From Shigella phage ESh27: a stretch of DNA of 64,000 nucleotides. Each line of letters opens with the position of its first letter. Position 1 is the stretch's first letter. The stretch is from sequence record ON528737. The stretch is one strand, 5' to 3'. Shown one piece after another: positions 29,747 to 35,525 of this stretch. The notes under the pieces were generated by a model. That model was not told the DNA's origin. It saw only the letters and a list, made by a program, of their open reading frames with translations, and did not search any database. Position numbers and translations under genes: made by a program.

Positions 29747-31072
29747 ATGCAATTGAATTCTCGTAATCTAAAAAGTATTATTGATAACGAAGCCTTAGCA
29801 TATGCGATGTACACCGTTGAAAACCGTGCAATCCCAAACATGATTGATGGATTCAAGCCGGTTCAACGTTTTGTGATTCATCGTGCGTTAGATTTGGCTC
29901 GTGGTAATAAAGAAAAATTTCATAAACTTGCGTCAATTGCGGGTGGTGTTGCAGATTTAGGTTATCACCATGGTGAATCTTCTGCACAAGATGCAGGTGC
30001 ATTAATGGCTAACACATGGAACAACAACTATCCACTGTTAGATGGTCAAGGCAACTTTGGTTCTAGAACAGTCCAAAAAGCTGCAGCATCTCGTTATATT
30101 TTTGCTCGTGTAAGTAAAAATTTCTATAATGTCTATAAAGATACTGAATATGCTCCAGCTCATGAAGATAAAGAACACGTTCCACCAAAATTCTATCTTC
30201 CTATTATTCCGACAGTTCTTTTGAATGGTGTCTCTGGTATTGCAACCGGTTACGCAACAAATATTCTGCCTCATAGTTTTAAATCAGTCAAAAAGGCCGT
30301 ATTACAAGCTCTTCAAGGTAAAAATGTCACTAAGCCAAAAGTTGAATTCCCGGAATTCCGTGGTGAAGTGCATGAAGTTGATGGGCGATATGAGATTCAT
30401 GGAACATATAAGTTCACATCTCGCACTCAAATGCAGATAACTGAAATCCCATATAAATTCGATCGTGAAACGTATGTGAGTAAGGTTCTTGACCCGTTGG
30501 AAGACAAAGGTCTAATCTCGTGGGAAGACGATTGTGGTGAACACGGCTTTGGGTTTAAGGTGAAGTTCCGTAAAGAGTACTCGCTTCCTGATGATGAAGA
30601 GCTACGTCATGAAAAAATCATGAAAGATTTTAGTCTCATCGAACGTCGTTCACAAAACATCACAGTGATTAATGAAAAGGGTAAATTAGCGGTCTATGAT
30701 AACGTAGTGGACTTAATCAAAGATTTTGTTGAAGTCCGTAAGACTTACGTTCAGAAACGTATTGACAACAAAATCCTTGAATCTGAAAAAGCATTTAAAC
30801 TTGCTTTTGCTAAGGCACACTTCATCAAAAAAGTTATCAGTGGTGAAATTGTGATTCAGGGCAAGACTCGTAAAGCTTTGACTGAAGAGCTAGCACAAAT
30901 CGAAATGTATAAAGAACATGTTGATAAACTGGTAGGTCTTAACATCTTCCATATCACTTCCGACGAAGCACGTAAACTAGCAGAAGAAGCTAAAGCTAAG
31001 AAAGAAGAAAACGAGTATTGGAAGTCTACTGATGTTGTGACAGAGTACACTAAAGACTTGGAGGCACTTTGA
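29747..31072 (+). CDS. 52: DNA topoisomerase II medium subunit (gp52)
   Basis: 441 aa; GyrA-like N-terminal region; T4 synteny. Confidence 0.9.
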   Translation: MQLNSRNLKSIIDNEALAYAMYTVENRAIPNMIDGFKPVQRFVIHRALDLARGNKEKFHKLASIAGGVADLGYHHGESSAQDAGALMANTWNNNYPLLDGQGNFGSRTVQKAAASRYIFARVSKNFYNVYKDTEYAPAHEDKEHVPPKFYLPIIPTVLLNGVSGIATGYATNILPHSFKSVKKAVLQALQGKNVTKPKVEFPEFRGEVHEVDGRYEIHGTYKFTSRTQMQITEIPYKFDRETYVSKVLDPLEDKGLISWEDDCGEHGFGFKVKFRKEYSLPDDEELRHEKIMKDFSLIERRSQNITVINEKGKLAVYDNVVDLIKDFVEVRKTYVQKRIDNKILESEKAFKLAFAKAHFIKKVISGEIVIQGKTRKALTEELAQIEMYKEHVDKLVGLNIFHITSDEARKLAEEAKAKKEENEYWKSTDVVTEYTKDLEAL

Positions 31073-31148
31073 GTGCCCTAGCCTTAGGATTTCTCGGTGC
31101 AATAGCTGCACTAGTGATTTGGCTGTATTGGTTGGACAATCACGATTA

Positions 31149-31180
31149 GGGAGCTTCGGCTCCCTTTGTGCATTTTTTTC
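31149..31180 (+). terminator. intrinsic terminator after gene 52
   Basis: GGGAGC-TTCG-GCTCCC hairpin 31149-31164 then TTTGTGCATTTTTTT. Confidence 0.6.
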
Positions 31181-31190
31181 TCACAAAACA

Positions 31191-31228
31191 GTTTACATGT
31201 GCTTCAAACGTGATATTATAGACCTATC
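31191..31228 (+). promoter_or_regulatory. early promoter upstream of motA
   Basis: -35 GTTTAC 31191-31196, 17 bp, -10 TATTAT 31214-31219, then AGACCTATCAA. Confidence 0.5.
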
Positions 31229-31258
31229 AAAACAAAACAACCAAATTGGAGAAATAAA

Positions 31259-31891
31259 ATGTCTAAAGTTACTTACATCATCAAAGCTTCTGAAAACGCT
31301 CTGAATGAAAAAACTGCGGCAATAATGGTTTATATCATTAAGAACAACTTCACCACTGCTGCCAATGTCCGTGAAGCTCTGGAAGCAGAATACAATGCAT
31401 CAGTTGTTAACTCTAACATTGGTGTATTGATTAAGAAAGGTTTAGTCGAAAAATCCGGTGATGGACTTGTGGCAACCGGCGAAGCAATGGATATTATCCA
31501 AAAAGCTGCAGACCTATTTGCTCAAGAAAATGCTCCAGAACTTCTTCAGAAACGTAACACTAGAAAAGCACGTGGAGTTACTCCTGAAATGCATGAATTA
31601 GCAAACTTTGTTTTTGAAAATATTAAAGATAAAGTTGAAGTTAAAGAAATTGGTGAAAACCGTAGTAACTTGGAAGTTCGATTTGCAAAACGAGTTCTAG
31701 GTATTCGCCAAATTGAAATTCGACGAGATGGCGCTCTTAGAATCTTTGCATACAACATGTCAGAAGCTGAATCAAAGCTGTTTACTTCTCTTGAAAATGA
31801 TGTTAAGATTAAGATCGGTGGTAAATATACTTACATTGACTTCCCTAATGTGTCCAAAGAAATCATTACCCTTGTAACTAACGTACTGTGA
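31259..31891 (+). CDS. motA: MotA middle-transcription activator
   Basis: 210 aa; N-terminus MSKVTYIIKAS and NSNIGVLIKKGLVEKSGDGL block. Confidence 0.8.
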   Translation: MSKVTYIIKASENALNEKTAAIMVYIIKNNFTTAANVREALEAEYNASVVNSNIGVLIKKGLVEKSGDGLVATGEAMDIIQKAADLFAQENAPELLQKRNTRKARGVTPEMHELANFVFENIKDKVEVKEIGENRSNLEVRFAKRVLGIRQIEIRRDGALRIFAYNMSEAESKLFTSLENDVKIKIGGKYTYIDFPNVSKEIITLVTNVL

Positions 31892-31901
31892 GGAATACAT
31901 A

Positions 31902-32246
31902 ATGAATAAGCTGAATATTATTAACGAACTTCGTAAATGTGCAGAACCTACTCAGGAAGGATGGGATATTTGGTACCATGGAGCTTATCTTGGAACTATC
32001 GTTAAAGTTAGAGCTGGGTTATATTTAATTATTCGCGAAAATTCTGAATTCCCTAATGGAGTAGCTCCAGGCGGTGTACGTAAAAACTACATGGCAGCGA
32101 TCAGTTCATTTGTTGATGCAGCTTACGAAATCTATAAAGAAGATTATAAAGAATATCAGCAGTCACAACCGGTTATTCGTTCGATTGGTGTAAATAAACA
32201 AGCACAAAAATCTATTTGGCAACGTATTAAGGAATGGTTTAAATGA
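31902..32246 (+). CDS. hypothetical protein
   Basis: 114 aa. Confidence 0.5.
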
Positions 32247-32704
32247 AATCATTTAAAGAACGCTTAGAGCTATTAGATTTAGCCTTGTCTCGTGAGACTC
32301 CTGAAAGTCTAGCAGAAAAATTCCAGTCCTACGGTTATAATTATTCTGCTGATGATATAATGAATGAAGTTCCTGAAATCTGTTGGCAAACGTGCTATTG
32401 GAACAATGACCAAAAAGTTCAACGTGTTATAGTATGTGCAGCTAATAGGTTTAAATTGAAGAGTGGTGGAACTCTGGTTATTCCTGGAGTTCGTCATTAC
32501 TCTAAAGATATGGCTGAAGTACTTGATATAGTTGGTCCTCAATTAGTCTCGCAACAAGTTTGTGGTGACGACCAAGGCTTTATTGACCAATACTCTAATT
32601 ACTGGACACGTGAAGAAGCAATGATTATTGCAACGTATGCTGGACAGGTATGTATTGAACGTGGCGGAAGTGAGAAAGAACTTTATTCAGAGGACCTTTA
32701 CTAA
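32243..32704 (+). CDS. hypothetical protein
   Basis: 153 aa; overlaps upstream stop. Confidence 0.5.
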
Positions 32705-32985
32705 TGAACCTTAAACAACTCCAGAAAGATGCTATTGAATCACGTATCCAAGATATCAAACGTCTTAATCATATGATGGAAGAAAACTATGGCATGTATG
32801 CTAATCAGCCAGGTTGGGATGCTTTAGATCATCCTTATTTGGTCAATCTATGTAAAGGTGATACATTAGCAATTATTCGTGAAGGGTTAAAACCTTTCTT
32901 GCGTGACATGTATATTAAAATGAACGAAGAAATTATTAGCTCGTTGCAATATCAATTAAGGAAATTAGATGATGAGAATAATTGA
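32704..32985 (+). CDS. hypothetical protein
   Basis: 93 aa. Confidence 0.45.
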   Translation: MNLKQLQKDAIESRIQDIKRLNHMMEENYGMYANQPGWDALDHPYLVNLCKGDTLAIIREGLKPFLRDMYIKMNEEIISSLQYQLRKLDDENN

Positions 32986-33196
32986 TTCTAAAGCAGATTA
33001 TTTTAATTCTGTTAATGATAAGAATAAAGCTTTAATTCGCCACTTTATTACTGAGATGGGTTATACTGACTCTAAAGATTTGAAAGAACACATTATCGAA
33101 TGTTCTGTGGCTAAAAAGTTTTCTTTTACCGATAAATGTTTAAATGAGGTTATAAATCATTATGAACAATCTTGTAGCAAAACACGATTTCAATAA
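32969..33196 (+). CDS. hypothetical protein
   Basis: 75 aa; overlaps upstream ORF by 17 nt. Confidence 0.35.
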   Translation: MMRIIDSKADYFNSVNDKNKALIRHFITEMGYTDSKDLKEHIIECSVAKKFSFTDKCLNEVINHYEQSCSKTRFQ

Positions 33197-33270
33197 GGCT
33201 TCCGTCCATAAGGACAAGAAGAAATCGGAACTTCAATCTAAACGTAAACAAAAACATAAGGGTAAAGACT

Positions 33271-33558
33271 ATGCTTACTAAAATCAAAGAAAATCCTGCC
33301 ACTGAACTTGTTATTCGATGTGAAGAACTTGCAGAGCTTTATCAGGTTAACCGAGAAGTATATCGTAGTGTTGTTGCCGATATGGCAGACGAAGTATGTT
33401 CTCGTATTCCTTTTAGTGTCGATTTCAATCATATGAAGCCTGGTGAAATCACTATCGTATTTGGTTCTGACTATACTGAAGAACGGGCTTTTAATGTCCT
33501 AGAATATGAAATGTCATTCTTTGACATACAGGACTACATTGATAGTTATAAGGAATGA
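33271..33558 (+). CDS. hypothetical acidic protein
   Basis: 95 aa, strongly acidic; lies in the arn/asiA neighbourhood. Confidence 0.45.
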   Translation: MLTKIKENPATELVIRCEELAELYQVNREVYRSVVADMADEVCSRIPFSVDFNHMKPGEITIVFGSDYTEERAFNVLEYEMSFFDIQDYIDSYKE

Positions 33559-33559
33559 T

Positions 33560-33721
33560 ATGAGCCATAATCTTCAGAACGTAGTAGAGGCAGAACGTGA
33601 GCGTGAGGCTTTAGTCTATAATGAACTATTAGCCACGTTCTTGGCCTTACACTCGTATGAACAAGAAGACTACACTGATTACGTTAAAAGTGTAGAAAAA
33701 GCTGTTTACAATCAACACTGA
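33560..33721 (+). CDS. hypothetical small protein
   Basis: 53 aa from ATG 33560. Confidence 0.3.
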   Translation: MSHNLQNVVEAEREREALVYNELLATFLALHSYEQEDYTDYVKSVEKAVYNQH

Positions 33722-33767
33722 TAATGGTACTATAATCGTATCAACCAAATGGAATGAATAAAACGTT

Positions 33768-34040
33768 ATGAATAAAGATATTGAAATTGTACGTGAAATT
33801 ATTACTGTTGCTTCTATTTTGATTAAATTCTCGAGGGAAGATATTGTTGAAGACCGAGCAAATTTCATCGGATTCTTGAATGAGATTGGAATTAAAAAAG
33901 ATGGTCGACAGCTAAATCAGAGTTCGTTCAGAAAACTAATTACAAATTTAACTGCCGAAGAAAAGAAAACACTGATTAGTGAATTCAATGAAGGTTTTGA
34001 AAATATTTATCGCCATTTGACGATGTATTCTAACAACTAA
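33768..34040 (+). CDS. asiA: AsiA anti-sigma70 factor
   Basis: 90 aa; REIITVASILIKFSREDIVE...EFNEGFE block characteristic of AsiA. Confidence 0.85.
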   Translation: MNKDIEIVREIITVASILIKFSREDIVEDRANFIGFLNEIGIKKDGRQLNQSSFRKLITNLTAEEKKTLISEFNEGFENIYRHLTMYSNN

Positions 34041-34700
34041 TTATTTAGCCCGCCCTAATATCCTTGCTGCTTGGTTGCATATTGCAGCCAAGCGTTCTTC
34101 ATTTAACACATCCGACCCCTTATACCAATACATAGAAACAGTTCCAGCATATATGTTATCCAAATTGAAGTAAGGACAACTATACATATATGCCAGTTCC
34201 GGAGTTTTTGATTTGGTAGGTAAGAAAGCAAAATCTGTTTTAGAAGTAAAGTGAAGTCCACTTAAATGGACCGAATACTCTGCTGTCGTTTTATCGACAG
34301 GAAATCCTCCCATAGATTTTTCAGTTACTGTGCTAGGTAACTTACCTTCATACGCAATAAGGTCGACGAAATAATTTAGATTTTTAGGTCTGAAAGAATA
34401 CACCGAACTAAAATCCGCCCTTGATGTGACGTGGACTATTTGTAGTTGTTCTAAAGCCGCAGATTCAAATCGTGTATTTCTTTCTTTTTGAATTACTTCT
34501 GTGTAAGTATCATATTTCGACCTCACGTAATAATCCATAAAAATATTCCCCTTGTACCATATTAGTGCCATTAGGAACAAAAGAACTACAACAGCAACTC
34601 TGGAAATAAGAATATTTCCAGAGGCGTTATCTTTGAAAATGCGGTCTAGCAACCCAAATAAAATATCACTAAGCGAAAATGATATTCTAGGTGCTGCCAT
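34041..34700 (-). CDS. t: holin T
   Basis: 219 aa; N-terminus MAAPRISFS, one TM then large periplasmic domain; C-terminus ARILGRAK; late promoter upstream. Confidence 0.9.
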   Translation of the reverse strand: MAAPRISFSLSDILFGLLDRIFKDNASGNILISRVAVVVLLFLMALIWYKGNIFMDYYVRSKYDTYTEVIQKERNTRFESAALEQLQIVHVTSRADFSSVYSFRPKNLNYFVDLIAYEGKLPSTVTEKSMGGFPVDKTTAEYSVHLSGLHFTSKTDFAFLPTKSKTPELAYMYSCPYFNLDNIYAGTVSMYWYKGSDVLNEERLAAICNQAARILGRAK

Positions 34701-34745: not shown

Positions 34746-35525
34746 TTAAATCCAGGAACCATAGATCGTGCCTGTTGCACCCCATGACGGTGAACTTCCG
34801 AATACTGCTCTGCCAGGAGCACCGCCACCAGATCTAGATAAGTGATTACCCCATCCATCTCCGCCCCGACCTCCAGCATCGCCGCCATTGCCTCCGCCGA
34901 ATTGGGAAGTGTAACCGGCGCCGCCCGGGGCGTCATAACTAGCATTACCACCCGGCCAATTAACACCACCGCCACCGAGACCAAATGGTCTGCCACCGCC
35001 ACCACCAGCTGTAGCATTTGGCGCCCAGCTATTCTGTAATGACACTGCACCACCACCGCCACCGCCTGATGCAATAACGCCATAGTTCCAAATACGAAGT
35101 CTTCCGCCGATATCATTTTGGATTACATCGCCGCCATTTGTGCCTGGGTTTCCGTTTACAGTACCGTTACCACCTCGTCCCCACATATGAACACCGCCGT
35201 GAATATTCAAAGTGACATATTCGTTAGGAGTATCACCATACATGAAGAATAAAGGAACGTCTTTAGAATATGATACCAAATTTCCGGTGATATTAAACAC
35301 TATAGGCGCACTACCTGCCTCAAAACATCTATCTCGGAACCATTGACCATTGAAGTTATGGTCTGCTCCAAGTGTGTGAATAATTTCTCTTGAGCGACCT
35401 GCAAATTGACTCATCCAGCAAGGAACACCCAATCTTAATTGACCAGCTGCTTGACTCATCCAGCGCTGACCCGTTTCATTTACGGCTGAACTTCCAATCC
35501 AGCCAGGAACTCCAACTACTGCCAT
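34746..35525 (-). CDS. 38: gp38 tail-fibre tip adhesin (T2-type, glycine-rich motifs)
   Basis: 259 aa; conserved N-terminus [13 protein letters not shown]; C-terminal half with poly-Gly runs separated by short variable segments. Confidence 0.85.

Follow-up and report, generated by a model that had tools for sequence, protein, structure and literature searches.

A probable, strongly diverged Arn homologue in the motA–asiA block of the RB69-like Shigella phage ESh27

In Shigella phage ESh27 (sequence record ON528737) the genes motA and asiA enclose a standard takeover block of the T4 type, in which a small acidic protein of 95 aa is most likely a very diverged Arn acting as a DNA mimic, a reading to which we assign a probability of roughly three in four. 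By present evidence, this acidic ORF, the counterpart of RB69ORF259c, is the true Arn homologue. In most records, including RefSeq RB69, the gene in the Arn slot is listed as 'hypothetical' and the designation 'anti-restriction nuclease' has been placed on arn.1, arn.3 or arn.4. All positions given below refer to the window, i.e. the whole stretch of 64,000 nucleotides that was analysed, and all features described lie on its plus strand.

The block between motA and asiA

The window as a whole belongs to an RB69-like Mosigvirus, DNA identity being 98.4% with phage phiC120 and 96.6% with RB69. The block extends from position 31259, the ATG of a 210-aa MotA, to position 34040, at which the stop codon of asiA (AsiA, 90 aa) ends, and six overlapping or closely spaced ORFs are situated between the two genes in the same (plus) orientation. 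Each of the six matches one PHROG family (E 1e-31 to 1e-69) and all six carry a CDS annotation in RB69. The orthology of every ORF in the block is backed by BLASTP as well as by PHROG, and four of the intervening ORFs have clear T4 orthologues in arn.4 to arn.1 (40-79% identity). Gene by gene, the order motA, arn.4, arn.3, arn.2, arn.1, arn, asiA.1, asiA is identical to that of the T4 cluster asiA–asiA.1–arn–arn.1-4–motA. A first-pass annotation made from the sequence had announced a complete MotA/AsiA pair enclosing five to six small genes and had pointed out that T4 encodes Arn in the corresponding region. This proved correct: both regulators are full-length with Pfam and PDB matches, the small genes number six and T4 arn is located between asiA and motA. 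The description of the small ORFs as 'unassigned' has to be abandoned, as they were named long ago in RB69 (arn.4, arn.3, arn.2, arn.1, RB69ORF259c and RB69ORF258c) and the same set is present in T4.

The RB69 locus (NC_004928, 159866-162633), arranged motA–arn.4–arn.3–arn.2–arn.1–ORF259c–ORF258c–asiA, has identical genes in identical order and orientation, and its proteins are 86-100% identical to those encoded here. The Arn-like ORF comprises 95 aa in ESh27 and 99 aa in RB69, the stop coming four codons sooner in the former, while arn.4 encodes 114 aa here versus 109 in RB69 and its central segment is nearer to that of Gaprivervirus VR25. The annotated T4 versions of arn.4 (68 aa) and arn.1 (43 aa) are shorter than their counterparts in ESh27. 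A search of positions 30900-34200 against Rfam did not reveal RNA families. The motA-arn-asiA block is an already catalogued host-takeover locus of RB69-like T4-type phages and of low novelty; it carries little weight as a discovery because public phage genomes hold the same locus at 96-98% identity with named genes.

The middle-transcription activator MotA (31259-31891, 210 aa) was identified by Pfam, PHROG, PDB and BLASTP. Its N-terminal activation domain is matched by Pfam MotA_activ (residues 2-96, E 2.4e-39, 133.8 bits versus a cut-off of 26.1) and by PDB entry 1i1s (1.4e-34), its C-terminal double-wing DNA-binding domain by Pfam MotCF (residues 123-207, 2.4e-8, 34.4 bits versus a cut-off of 25) and by PDB entry 5jlt (3.1e-12). 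The full-length protein matches 6k4y_M (residues 1-207, E 2e-51) and phrog_1345 (5.7e-90) and shares 99.5% identity with MotA from RB69 and 51% with MotA from T4. AsiA (33768-34040, 90 aa), the anti-sigma-70 factor and co-activator, was found by the same four approaches; it is matched over its full length by Pfam AsiA (E 9.3e-33) and phrog_1166 (9.6e-40), hits the PDB entries 1jr5 (8.2e-40) and 6k4y_I (1.7e-39) and is 74% identical to T4 AsiA. The polymerase switch brought about by AsiA and MotA is established in T4, and identities of 74% and 51% indicate that it probably operates in ESh27. By homology to the T4 complex 6K4Y, AsiA would bind region 4 of host sigma-70, MotA would dock on the AsiA-remodelled sigma and on MotA boxes, and the host polymerase would be redirected to phage middle promoters. 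A MotA box combined with a -10 motif (TGCTTNA-N11-13-TANNNT) occurs 14 times in the whole window versus 3.6 ± 1.7 times expected, a number reached in none of 100 shuffles. This excess, as motif evidence, fits a working sigma-appropriation regulon, and together with the complete MotA and AsiA it lends support to the sigma-70 appropriation that had been expected in the first-pass annotation. Within the motA-asiA interval a search for MotA-box promoter motifs gave none.

A terminator-like hairpin can be read directly in the sequence 3' of gene 52 (31149-31179; GGGAGC-TTCG-GCTCCC followed by TTTGTGCATTTTTTT). It was passed over by the automatic terminator scan, the T-run rule of which it does not satisfy. 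An early-type sigma-70 promoter-like site is present 5' of motA (31192-31219; TTTACA-16-TATTAT with extended TG). It is the top site of the scan with 10 of 12 matches and is put forward on account of its position and quality, the count of such sites in the region not being above chance. A weak promoter-like site 5' of asiA (33705-33733; TTTACA-17-TACTAT with TG; 9/12 matches) is listed for its position. We infer the route of arn-gene transcription in ESh27; arn and the remaining five small genes are probably expressed together.

The acidic protein in the arn slot

The 95-aa ORF (33271-33558; RB69ORF259c) was assigned as a diverged arn homologue and predicted DNA-mimic anti-restriction protein on the basis of synteny, profiles and AF2 modelling. 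It is located between arn.1 and asiA.1/asiA, as is arn in T4. The protein had been described beforehand as strongly acidic, and this is borne out by 20 aspartate plus glutamate versus nine lysine plus arginine residues, a net charge of -11 and a pI of 4.37, as compared to -9 and 4.55 for T4 Arn. The Pfam model DM_Arn (PF22134) does not match the ORF even at E 10, leaving it below the gathering threshold; the same model scores T4 Arn with 186.7 bits and a bridging protein, P0009, with 16 bits versus a cut-off of 26. Direct BLASTP of the ORF against T4 Arn yields a weak alignment with 21% identity over 38 residues. A profile constructed from the ORF's own relatives, with T4-type Arn excluded, has T4 Arn (3WX4_A) as its sole significant match among PDB sequences (E 6.6e-6), and the alignment is collinear, pairing residues 7-91 with residues 5-92. 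Comparison of the 95-aa family with Arn by hhalign resulted in a probability of 90.4% (E 1.4e-6, full length); the initial comparison, run without the bridging sequence, gave 25% only. P0009 matches the 95-aa ORF with E 6.2e-6 in a library-wide and 2e-16 in a pairwise comparison and is 33% identical to T4 Arn over the full length (E 7e-11). When used as a tblastn query in phage genomes, it recovers both the family of the 95-aa ORF and the T4-type Arn family.

The structure prediction for a DNA-mimic fold that had been proposed in the first-pass annotation led to a confident AF2 model (pLDDT 92.9), for which Foldseek returned 3wx4 as the sole match at E ≤ 0.001 (TM 0.80/0.78, rmsd 2.5 Å, 95 columns). 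Seven of the 16 rows in the modelling alignment were T4-type Arn and 3WX4, judged from its release in 2014, may have been part of the AlphaFold2 training set, so that the fold match is not fully independent. When the two proteins are aligned, acidic residues coincide in eight columns versus 3.4 expected (P 0.005), and the 95-aa ORF and T4 Arn have their length, a C-terminal (D/E)DY(I/F) motif and a flanking asiA.1-like gene in common. On account of the profile match to 3WX4, the profile-profile comparison and the match of the AlphaFold2 model, we regard the 95-aa protein as a diverged Arn. It is similar to T4 Arn in length class, predicted fold, negative net charge and acidic patches but differs from it in that the identity amounts to about 15-21% and the DM_Arn threshold is missed.

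An exhaustive search with the 95-aa ORF uncovered, apart from P0008, two relatives only and the family is therefore very narrow. P0008 (1468 aa) was rejected as a tandem-repeat artefact, in which one weak match of 48 residues is repeated ten times, and a weak resemblance of the ORF to the PP7-type coat protein in 6n4v, consisting of two stretches of 8.8 bits, was judged to be due to chance. The orthologue is labelled 'anti-restriction nuclease protein' in one GenBank record (H40), and our literature search found RB69ORF259c mentioned in no paper.

Proposed action and target of the Arn-like protein

The function of T4 Arn is documented (PMC12707154, PMC12871103). Its anti-McrBC phenotype has been demonstrated and it binds H-NS (PMC12707154); several targets are known for it, and the substitution N70S is enough to alter its specificity (PMC12871103). 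For the 95-aa protein we infer DNA mimicry, dimerisation and the target. It has kept the predicted Arn fold, a negative net charge and two patches of acidic residues, and most likely works as a DNA mimic that fills the site at which a modification-dependent nuclease of the host (McrBC in T4), and possibly H-NS, binds DNA. Replicating phage DNA that is modified yet incompletely glycosylated would thereby be protected. T7 Ocr, ArdA and lambda Gam are likewise small, strongly acidic proteins that occupy the sites where host defence enzymes bind DNA (PMC12707154), and the same principle is expected here. They are homologous neither to each other nor to Arn and differ in folds and targets; searches by sequence and by fold detected no likeness to them in the 95-aa ORF.

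RB69 DNA contains arabinosylated 5-hydroxycytosine and not hydroxymethylcytosine (PMC13326640). In RB69-type phages cytosine is replaced by this base and not by glucosyl-hydroxymethylcytosine. Their DNA chemistry differs from that of T4, and the target of the 95-aa protein therefore need not be McrBC. It is possible, although we consider it doubtful, that the protein kept the Arn fold but changed its target to another DNA-binding host factor or immune sensor, in which case McrBC would be irrelevant. Candidates for such a target are a type IV nuclease or glycosylase sensing 5-hydroxycytosine or arabinosylated DNA, a PUA-Cal-HAD-like system and H-NS. As a tentative proposal, the Mosigvirus Arn-like protein might have diverged such that it neutralises a host sensor or nuclease recognising arabinosylated 5-hydroxycytosine or its unglycosylated precursor, or else another DNA-binding immune complex. 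Such retargeting would account for the arn slot being by far the most diverged in the block, at about 15-21% identity to T4 as against the 40-79% retained by its neighbours, and it agrees with the unlike DNA chemistry of RB69, with the presence of a separate Arn subtype in each genus (Tequatrovirus, Mosigvirus, Gaprivervirus) and with the multiple targets of T4 Arn, whose specificity shifts upon the N70S exchange alone. Fast divergence is, however, equally expected if McrBC, as an unchanged target, varies between hosts, and the conserved acidic patches are compatible with a generic DNA-like surface. Arn falls into three or more genus-specific subtypes that are strongly diverged and outside the reach of Pfam DM_Arn. 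These track differences in phage DNA modification, and the RB69-type protein could therefore reasonably be used to probe defences that sense 5-hydroxycytosine-based DNA.

We deem it unlikely that the small genes of the motA-asiA interval, the one for the acidic protein among them, encode not counter-defence proteins but accessory takeover factors that assist MotA and AsiA, for instance by modulating the nucleoid, H-NS or transcription. They are flanked by and co-oriented with both transcription takeover genes, H-NS is bound by Arn, and Arn.3 is conserved to the same degree as AsiA (76% versus 74% identity to T4), which has the appearance of a housekeeping interaction under constraint and not of an arms race; yet the anti-McrBC phenotype of T4 Arn is a demonstrated one, the core domain of Arn.3 is also present in large polyvalent proteins and nothing connects the small proteins with RNA polymerase. 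That an unrelated acidic protein occupies the same variable slot and owes its likeness to Arn to composition and to the Arn rows in the model alignment is highly improbable: the lacking DM_Arn match, the low direct identity and the 25% of the first hhalign run would agree with it, but the profile free of T4-type Arn singles out 3WX4 in a full-length collinear match, P0009 significantly matches both families over the full length, and length, position, asiA.1-like flank and C-terminal motif are all shared.

Neighbouring small genes and control of the arn transcript

The first-pass annotation had considered the small ORFs collectively as candidates for anti-defence functions. This holds for the acidic 95-aa ORF, which is in the arn slot and has profile homology and the predicted fold; for the other five the analysis gave no sign of an anti-defence role. 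In some records, arn.1, arn.3 and arn.4 are labelled 'anti-restriction nuclease', and most likely this label derives from the positional gene names and not from experiment; a preprint from June 2026 states the functions of these three genes as unknown. Scans of all six small ORFs against Pfam and NCBIfam gave no matches, nor did single-sequence searches of the PDB with arn.4, arn.2 and arn.1.

The orthologue of arn.4 (31902-32246; 114 aa; phrog_1594, 2e-50) encodes a basic protein (pI 9.2) with 86% identity to RB69, 83% to VR25 and, over the C-terminal 73 residues, 68% to the 68-aa T4 Arn.4. The next gene, arn.3 (32243-32704; 153 aa; phrog_839, 3e-69), belongs to the Pfam T4_Y16D family and its product shares 76% identity with T4 Arn.3 across its full length. 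PF26092 (= T4_Y16D) is precomputed for 129 clusters of Arn.3 homologues, i.e. for nearly all of them; our Pfam scan of Arn.3 gave no T4_Y16D match, the scanned copy of Pfam apparently being without that model. The AF2 model of Arn.3 (pLDDT 89.6) has no match among PDB folds (best E 0.25) and the Arn.3 profile has none among PDB sequences; in BFVD the model matches uncharacterised phage proteins and polyvalent proteins. Polyvalent proteins are conflict effectors. The polar residues R84-H85, Q111, D115, R123 and Q135 of Arn.3 are invariant, and in longer homologues no fused Pfam domains were found. With a confident model, no solved structure that matches it and these residues invariant, Arn.3 (T4_Y16D) may be a counter-defence domain of new fold that is shared with polyvalent proteins. 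Our literature search found T4_Y16D mentioned in no paper.

The product of arn.2 (32704-32985; 93 aa; phrog_1844, 1.9e-40) shares 99% identity with RB69 Arn.2 and 40% with T4 Arn.2. The arn.1 orthologue (32969-33196; 75 aa; phrog_4452, 3.8e-40) is a long form, 100% identical to RB69 over 72 aa, 79% identical to the annotated 43-aa T4 Arn.1 and 72% identical to a TTG-started T4 frame of 72 aa. The asiA.1-like ORF (33560-33721; 53 aa, acidic; phrog_5245, 4.6e-31) is 100% identical to RB69ORF258c; it matches gp175 of VR25 with E 4.7e-8 and T4 AsiA.1 weakly, with the N-terminus MSHNL common to both. A mechanical ORF of 71 aa starting at 33506 was dismissed as an over-extension, as the PHROG 5245 alignment (from residue 19) and the RB69 annotation both begin at 33560.

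In T2, the arn transcript has been described to carry a control module involving the host sRNA ArcZ and RNase E (bioRxiv 10.64898/2026.06.19.733364), the elements of which we read in the sequence of the closely related T4. These T2/T4 elements are not conserved in the RB69-like phage studied here, and an RB69-type phage is predicted not to depend on ArcZ. At the 3' end of arn.2, the ArcZ pairing site (CCAGGGAAAT) is replaced by TTAAGGAAAT, and the duplex with the ArcZ seed amounts to -14.8 kcal/mol versus -23 in T4, the mean best value of shuffles being -19.7 (mononucleotide shuffles, a rough control). The 70-nt non-coding spacer with the GCAUU RNase E site 5' of arn.1 is absent, arn.2 and arn.1 overlapping by 17 nt. 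The stretch homologous to the T4 spacer encodes the N-terminal part of the 75-aa Arn.1, with CCACT in place of GCATT. This comparison of sequences suggests that the 'intergenic region' of the T2 sRNA-control model is in fact the coding N-terminus of Arn.1, and a coding status of that region would change how the ArcZ mechanism is to be read.

The motA-asiA block of an RB69-like phage

Across 31259-34040 (+), DNA identity reaches 98.4% with Escherichia phage phiC120 and 96.6% with RB69, and 147 phage records span at least 80% of this segment. Its flanking genes are typical T4-type, with topoisomerase gene 52 (29747-31072) upstream and, downstream on the opposite strand, holin t, a T2-type gp38 adhesin rich in glycine, and tail-fibre gene 37. 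DNA identity and flanks together identify the source, on sequence grounds, as an RB69-like Mosigvirus (Tevenvirinae). The gp38 protein (34746-35525, minus strand, 259 aa) features GGGG motifs and is of the glycine-rich T2/T6 adhesin type, not the T4-type assembly chaperone. Between 34 and 38 kb, G+C is raised (0.41-0.42) and the GC skew reversed, consistent with late tail-fibre genes on the other strand. An unannotated hydrophobic ORF of 26 codons (LSALALGFLGAIAALVIWLYWLDNHD) resides at 31069-31149 (+), where motA.1, a small membrane gene, is situated in T4. It starts at a TTG that overlaps the stop codon of gene 52 and has GGAGG 5 nt upstream; the ORF is kept in RB69 with one amino-acid and two synonymous changes.

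MotA (31259-31891, +, 210 aa) matches Pfam MotA_activ at 2.4e-39 with MotCF above threshold, aligns over its full length with chain M of the T4 sigma-appropriation complex (PDB 6K4Y, 2e-51) and is 51% identical to T4 MotA by BLASTP. AsiA (33768-34040, +, 90 aa; Pfam 9.3e-33; PDB 1jr5, 8e-40) is 74% identical to its T4 counterpart by BLASTP. The complete MotA/AsiA pair recognized in the first-pass annotation is therefore confirmed, and their close relationship to the T4 proteins of structure 6K4Y suggests that sigma appropriation operates here as well. The window shows a four-fold enrichment of MotA-box plus -10 motifs; a motif scan found none inside 31259-34040. A good early-type promoter-like site is located upstream of motA (31192-31219), after a terminator-like hairpin, and a weaker promoter-like site precedes asiA (33705-33733). 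As the interval has no MotA-box motif and the early-type site lies upstream of motA, the arn genes may be transcribed by read-through from the motA promoter. In T2, arn.4-arn.3-arn.2-arn.1-arn are described as a single middle transcript (bioRxiv 10.64898/2026.06.19.733364).

Between motA and asiA, six ORFs are tightly packed or overlapping on the same strand, and all six have strong PHROG family matches and are annotated in RB69. BLASTP against the proteins of T4, RB69 and Gaprivervirus VR25 assigns them as Arn.4 (31902-32246, +, 114 aa; 68% to T4 over the C-terminal 73 residues), Arn.3 (32243-32704, +, 153 aa; 76%), Arn.2 (32704-32985, +, 93 aa; 40%), Arn.1 (32969-33196, +, 75 aa; 79% over the 38 residues that align with the 43-aa form annotated in T4), the counterpart of RB69ORF259c in the arn slot (33271-33558, +, 95 aa; about 15-21%) and the counterpart of RB69ORF258c in the asiA.1 slot (33560-33721, +, 53 aa; about 32%, with the N-terminus MSHNL in common). 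The order in T4 is asiA, asiA.1, arn, arn.1, arn.2, arn.3, arn.4, motA. The small genes had been described as unassigned; given the matches to named T4, RB69 and VR25 proteins this does not hold for their names, but it does for the functions of arn.1 to arn.4, stated as unknown in a June 2026 preprint on phage T2 (bioRxiv 10.64898/2026.06.19.733364). For the last ORF, a mechanical 71-aa reading from 33506 was replaced by the 53-aa gene from 33560, the start shared by the PHROG alignment and the annotations of RB69 and AV117. The T4 annotation gives arn.4 only 68 aa, compared with 114 aa here. The central segment of the latter matches Gaprivervirus VR25 and not RB69 (109 aa), pointing to a local patch of recombination. 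By BLASTP comparison, the arn slot diverges fastest in the block.

The acidic protein in the arn slot

The 95-aa protein (33271-33558, +) had been put forward as an anti-defence candidate on account of its strong acidity (pI 4.37, net charge -11) and of Arn, which T4 indeed encodes in this region, between asiA.1 and arn.1. Direct comparison provides weak evidence that it is Arn: identity to T4 Arn is 21% over 38 residues by BLASTP and 15% in the Foldseek alignment, and Pfam DM_Arn does not match even at E 10. Its family is very narrow, with six clusters at 81% identity or above among 5.8 billion proteins. HMMER, run exhaustively against 1.84 billion representatives, returned only two true relatives, a third match being ruled out as a repeat artefact. 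One of the two, the metagenomic 91-aa protein P0009, matches the 95-aa protein at a pairwise E of 2e-16 and T4 Arn over its full length (33% identity, E 7e-11), and in tblastn it finds both Tequatrovirus arn and Mosigvirus ORF259c genes in phage genomes. In sequence terms P0009 is a bridge between the two families. In Gaprivervirus VR25 the slot is filled by a third subtype, with 32% identity to the 95-aa protein. A profile built from the 95-aa protein, its Mosigvirus relatives, VR25 gp174 and P0009, with T4-type Arn left out, retrieved T4 Arn (3WX4) from the PDB as the single significant sequence (E 6.6e-6, residues 7-91 against 5-92), and profile-profile comparison with a T4-type Arn alignment gave 90.4% probability (E 1.4e-6).

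The structure prediction proposed as a check on a DNA-mimic fold points the same way. The AlphaFold2 model (pLDDT 92.9) has 3wx4 as its only Foldseek match in the PDB at E ≤ 0.001 (TM 0.80/0.78, rmsd 2.5 Å over 95 columns). The modelling alignment included seven T4-type Arn rows and 3WX4, judged by its 2014 release date, may have been in the training set; the fold match is thus supporting, not independent, evidence, and the claim is carried by the profile results and synteny. Acidic residues of the two proteins coincide in 8 alignment columns (3.4 expected, P 0.005), clustered in the long second helix (D37, D40, E41) and a C-terminal (D/E)xxDYxx(D/E) motif. The Arn-based reading thus holds for this protein, a diverged Arn, whereas the other five small genes stay at the level of candidates for anti-defence. 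The ORF stops (33547-33558) four codons short of the length seen in RB69 and most relatives (95 vs 99 aa), a short form also found in one database cluster, P0004.

T4 Arn inhibits the restriction by McrBC of DNA with unglucosylated hydroxymethylcytosine, is proposed from a structural model to bind McrB as a DNA mimic, and also binds H-NS (PMC12707154). A 2026 preprint adds the PUA-Cal-HAD system as a further target, inhibition of which is abolished by the single substitution N70S (PMC12871103). Homology, fold, charge and position make it most likely that the 95-aa protein would work like T4 Arn, serving as an acidic decoy to a defence protein that binds DNA. A serious rival, tentative as it stands, is that it would act on a target other than those of T4 Arn, because RB69 DNA is reported to contain mono- and di-arabinosylated 5-hydroxycytosine, not a hydroxymethylcytosine derivative (PMC13326640), and because no slot in the block diverges faster.

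The locus is already catalogued. Arn is listed among RB69-group proteins in a 2021 comparative paper (PMC8056088), and at least one GenBank record, that of BASEL phage ChristianSchoenbein, already labels the orthologue of the 95-aa protein as anti-restriction nuclease protein. RefSeq and several GenBank records, as well as PHROG 4452, attach 'anti-restriction nuclease' to arn.1, arn.3 or arn.4, which we read as stemming from positional gene names, not experiment. ORF259c, the Arn homologue, is called 'hypothetical' by RefSeq and several GenBank records (public phage loci L001 and L002), and in AV117 a doubtful 39-aa ORF is annotated across the arn.1 stop in place of arn.1. We add only three things: RB69ORF259c is assigned more firmly as a diverged Arn missed by Pfam, the T2-type ArcZ elements are absent from the window, and arn.1 is re-read.

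Arn.3 and the start of arn.1

Arn.3 (32243-32704) is the best conserved small gene of the block, on a par with AsiA, and has 129 homologue clusters. It features a core of about 95 residues with invariant R84-H85, Q111-G-F, D115, R123 and Q135 and a conserved C-terminal tail, LYSEDLY. Its homologues carry Pfam PF26092, named T4_Y16D after the UniProt identifier of T4 Arn.3; given this name, and as our literature search found no mention of it, we take PF26092 to be a family with no function assigned. The AlphaFold2 prediction is confident (pLDDT 89.6) and matches no PDB fold (best E 0.25, TM 0.23), nor does the profile match PDB sequences. Among the many uncharacterized phage proteins that it resembles in a viral structure library are some from phages of Acinetobacter, Erwinia, Pseudomonas and Agrobacterium, and domains within 'large polyvalent proteins'. 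Its core is shared by numerous unrelated phages. Arn.3 is a known unknown that deserves dedicated study and is not specific to this window.

In the model of the T2 arn transcript, ArcZ pairs at arn.2 +285 to +294 and an RNase E site, GCAUU, ends a 70-nt spacer before arn.1 (bioRxiv 10.64898/2026.06.19.733364); neither element is conserved in this RB69-like phage. The T4 site, CCAGGGAAAT, is complementary to ArcZ, the sequence of which was confirmed in 5,417 of 5,426 E. coli genomes, and its counterpart in the window (32955-32970) reads TTAAGGAAAT. The predicted duplex with the ArcZ seed comes to -14.8 kcal/mol in the window, which is at chance level; T4 reaches -23, and the best duplexes in mononucleotide shuffles, a rough control, average -19.7. 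GCATT is replaced by CCACT (33040-33050). The spacer itself is absent from the window: arn.2 overlaps arn.1, and the first 29 residues of the 75-aa Arn.1 are encoded in the homologous stretch (32969-33055).

In T4, the 'spacer' (locus L003, 3307-3393, minus strand) can be read in frame into arn.1 without a stop, beginning at a TTG that has the Shine-Dalgarno sequence GAAGGTG 7 nt upstream. The extended T4 Arn.1 is 72% identical to that of the window, and the first 30 codons comprise 13 identical, 8 synonymously and 9 non-synonymously differing ones. Start, Shine-Dalgarno sequence, identity and codon pattern suggest that arn.1 is annotated in N-terminally truncated form in T4 and T2 and that the ArcZ site overlaps its true start region, on codons 2-4 of the longer Arn.1. 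The 'intergenic' RNase E cleavage region of T2/T4 in the 2026 preprint corresponds by homology to sequence that codes for the N-terminus of the 75-aa Arn.1 here.
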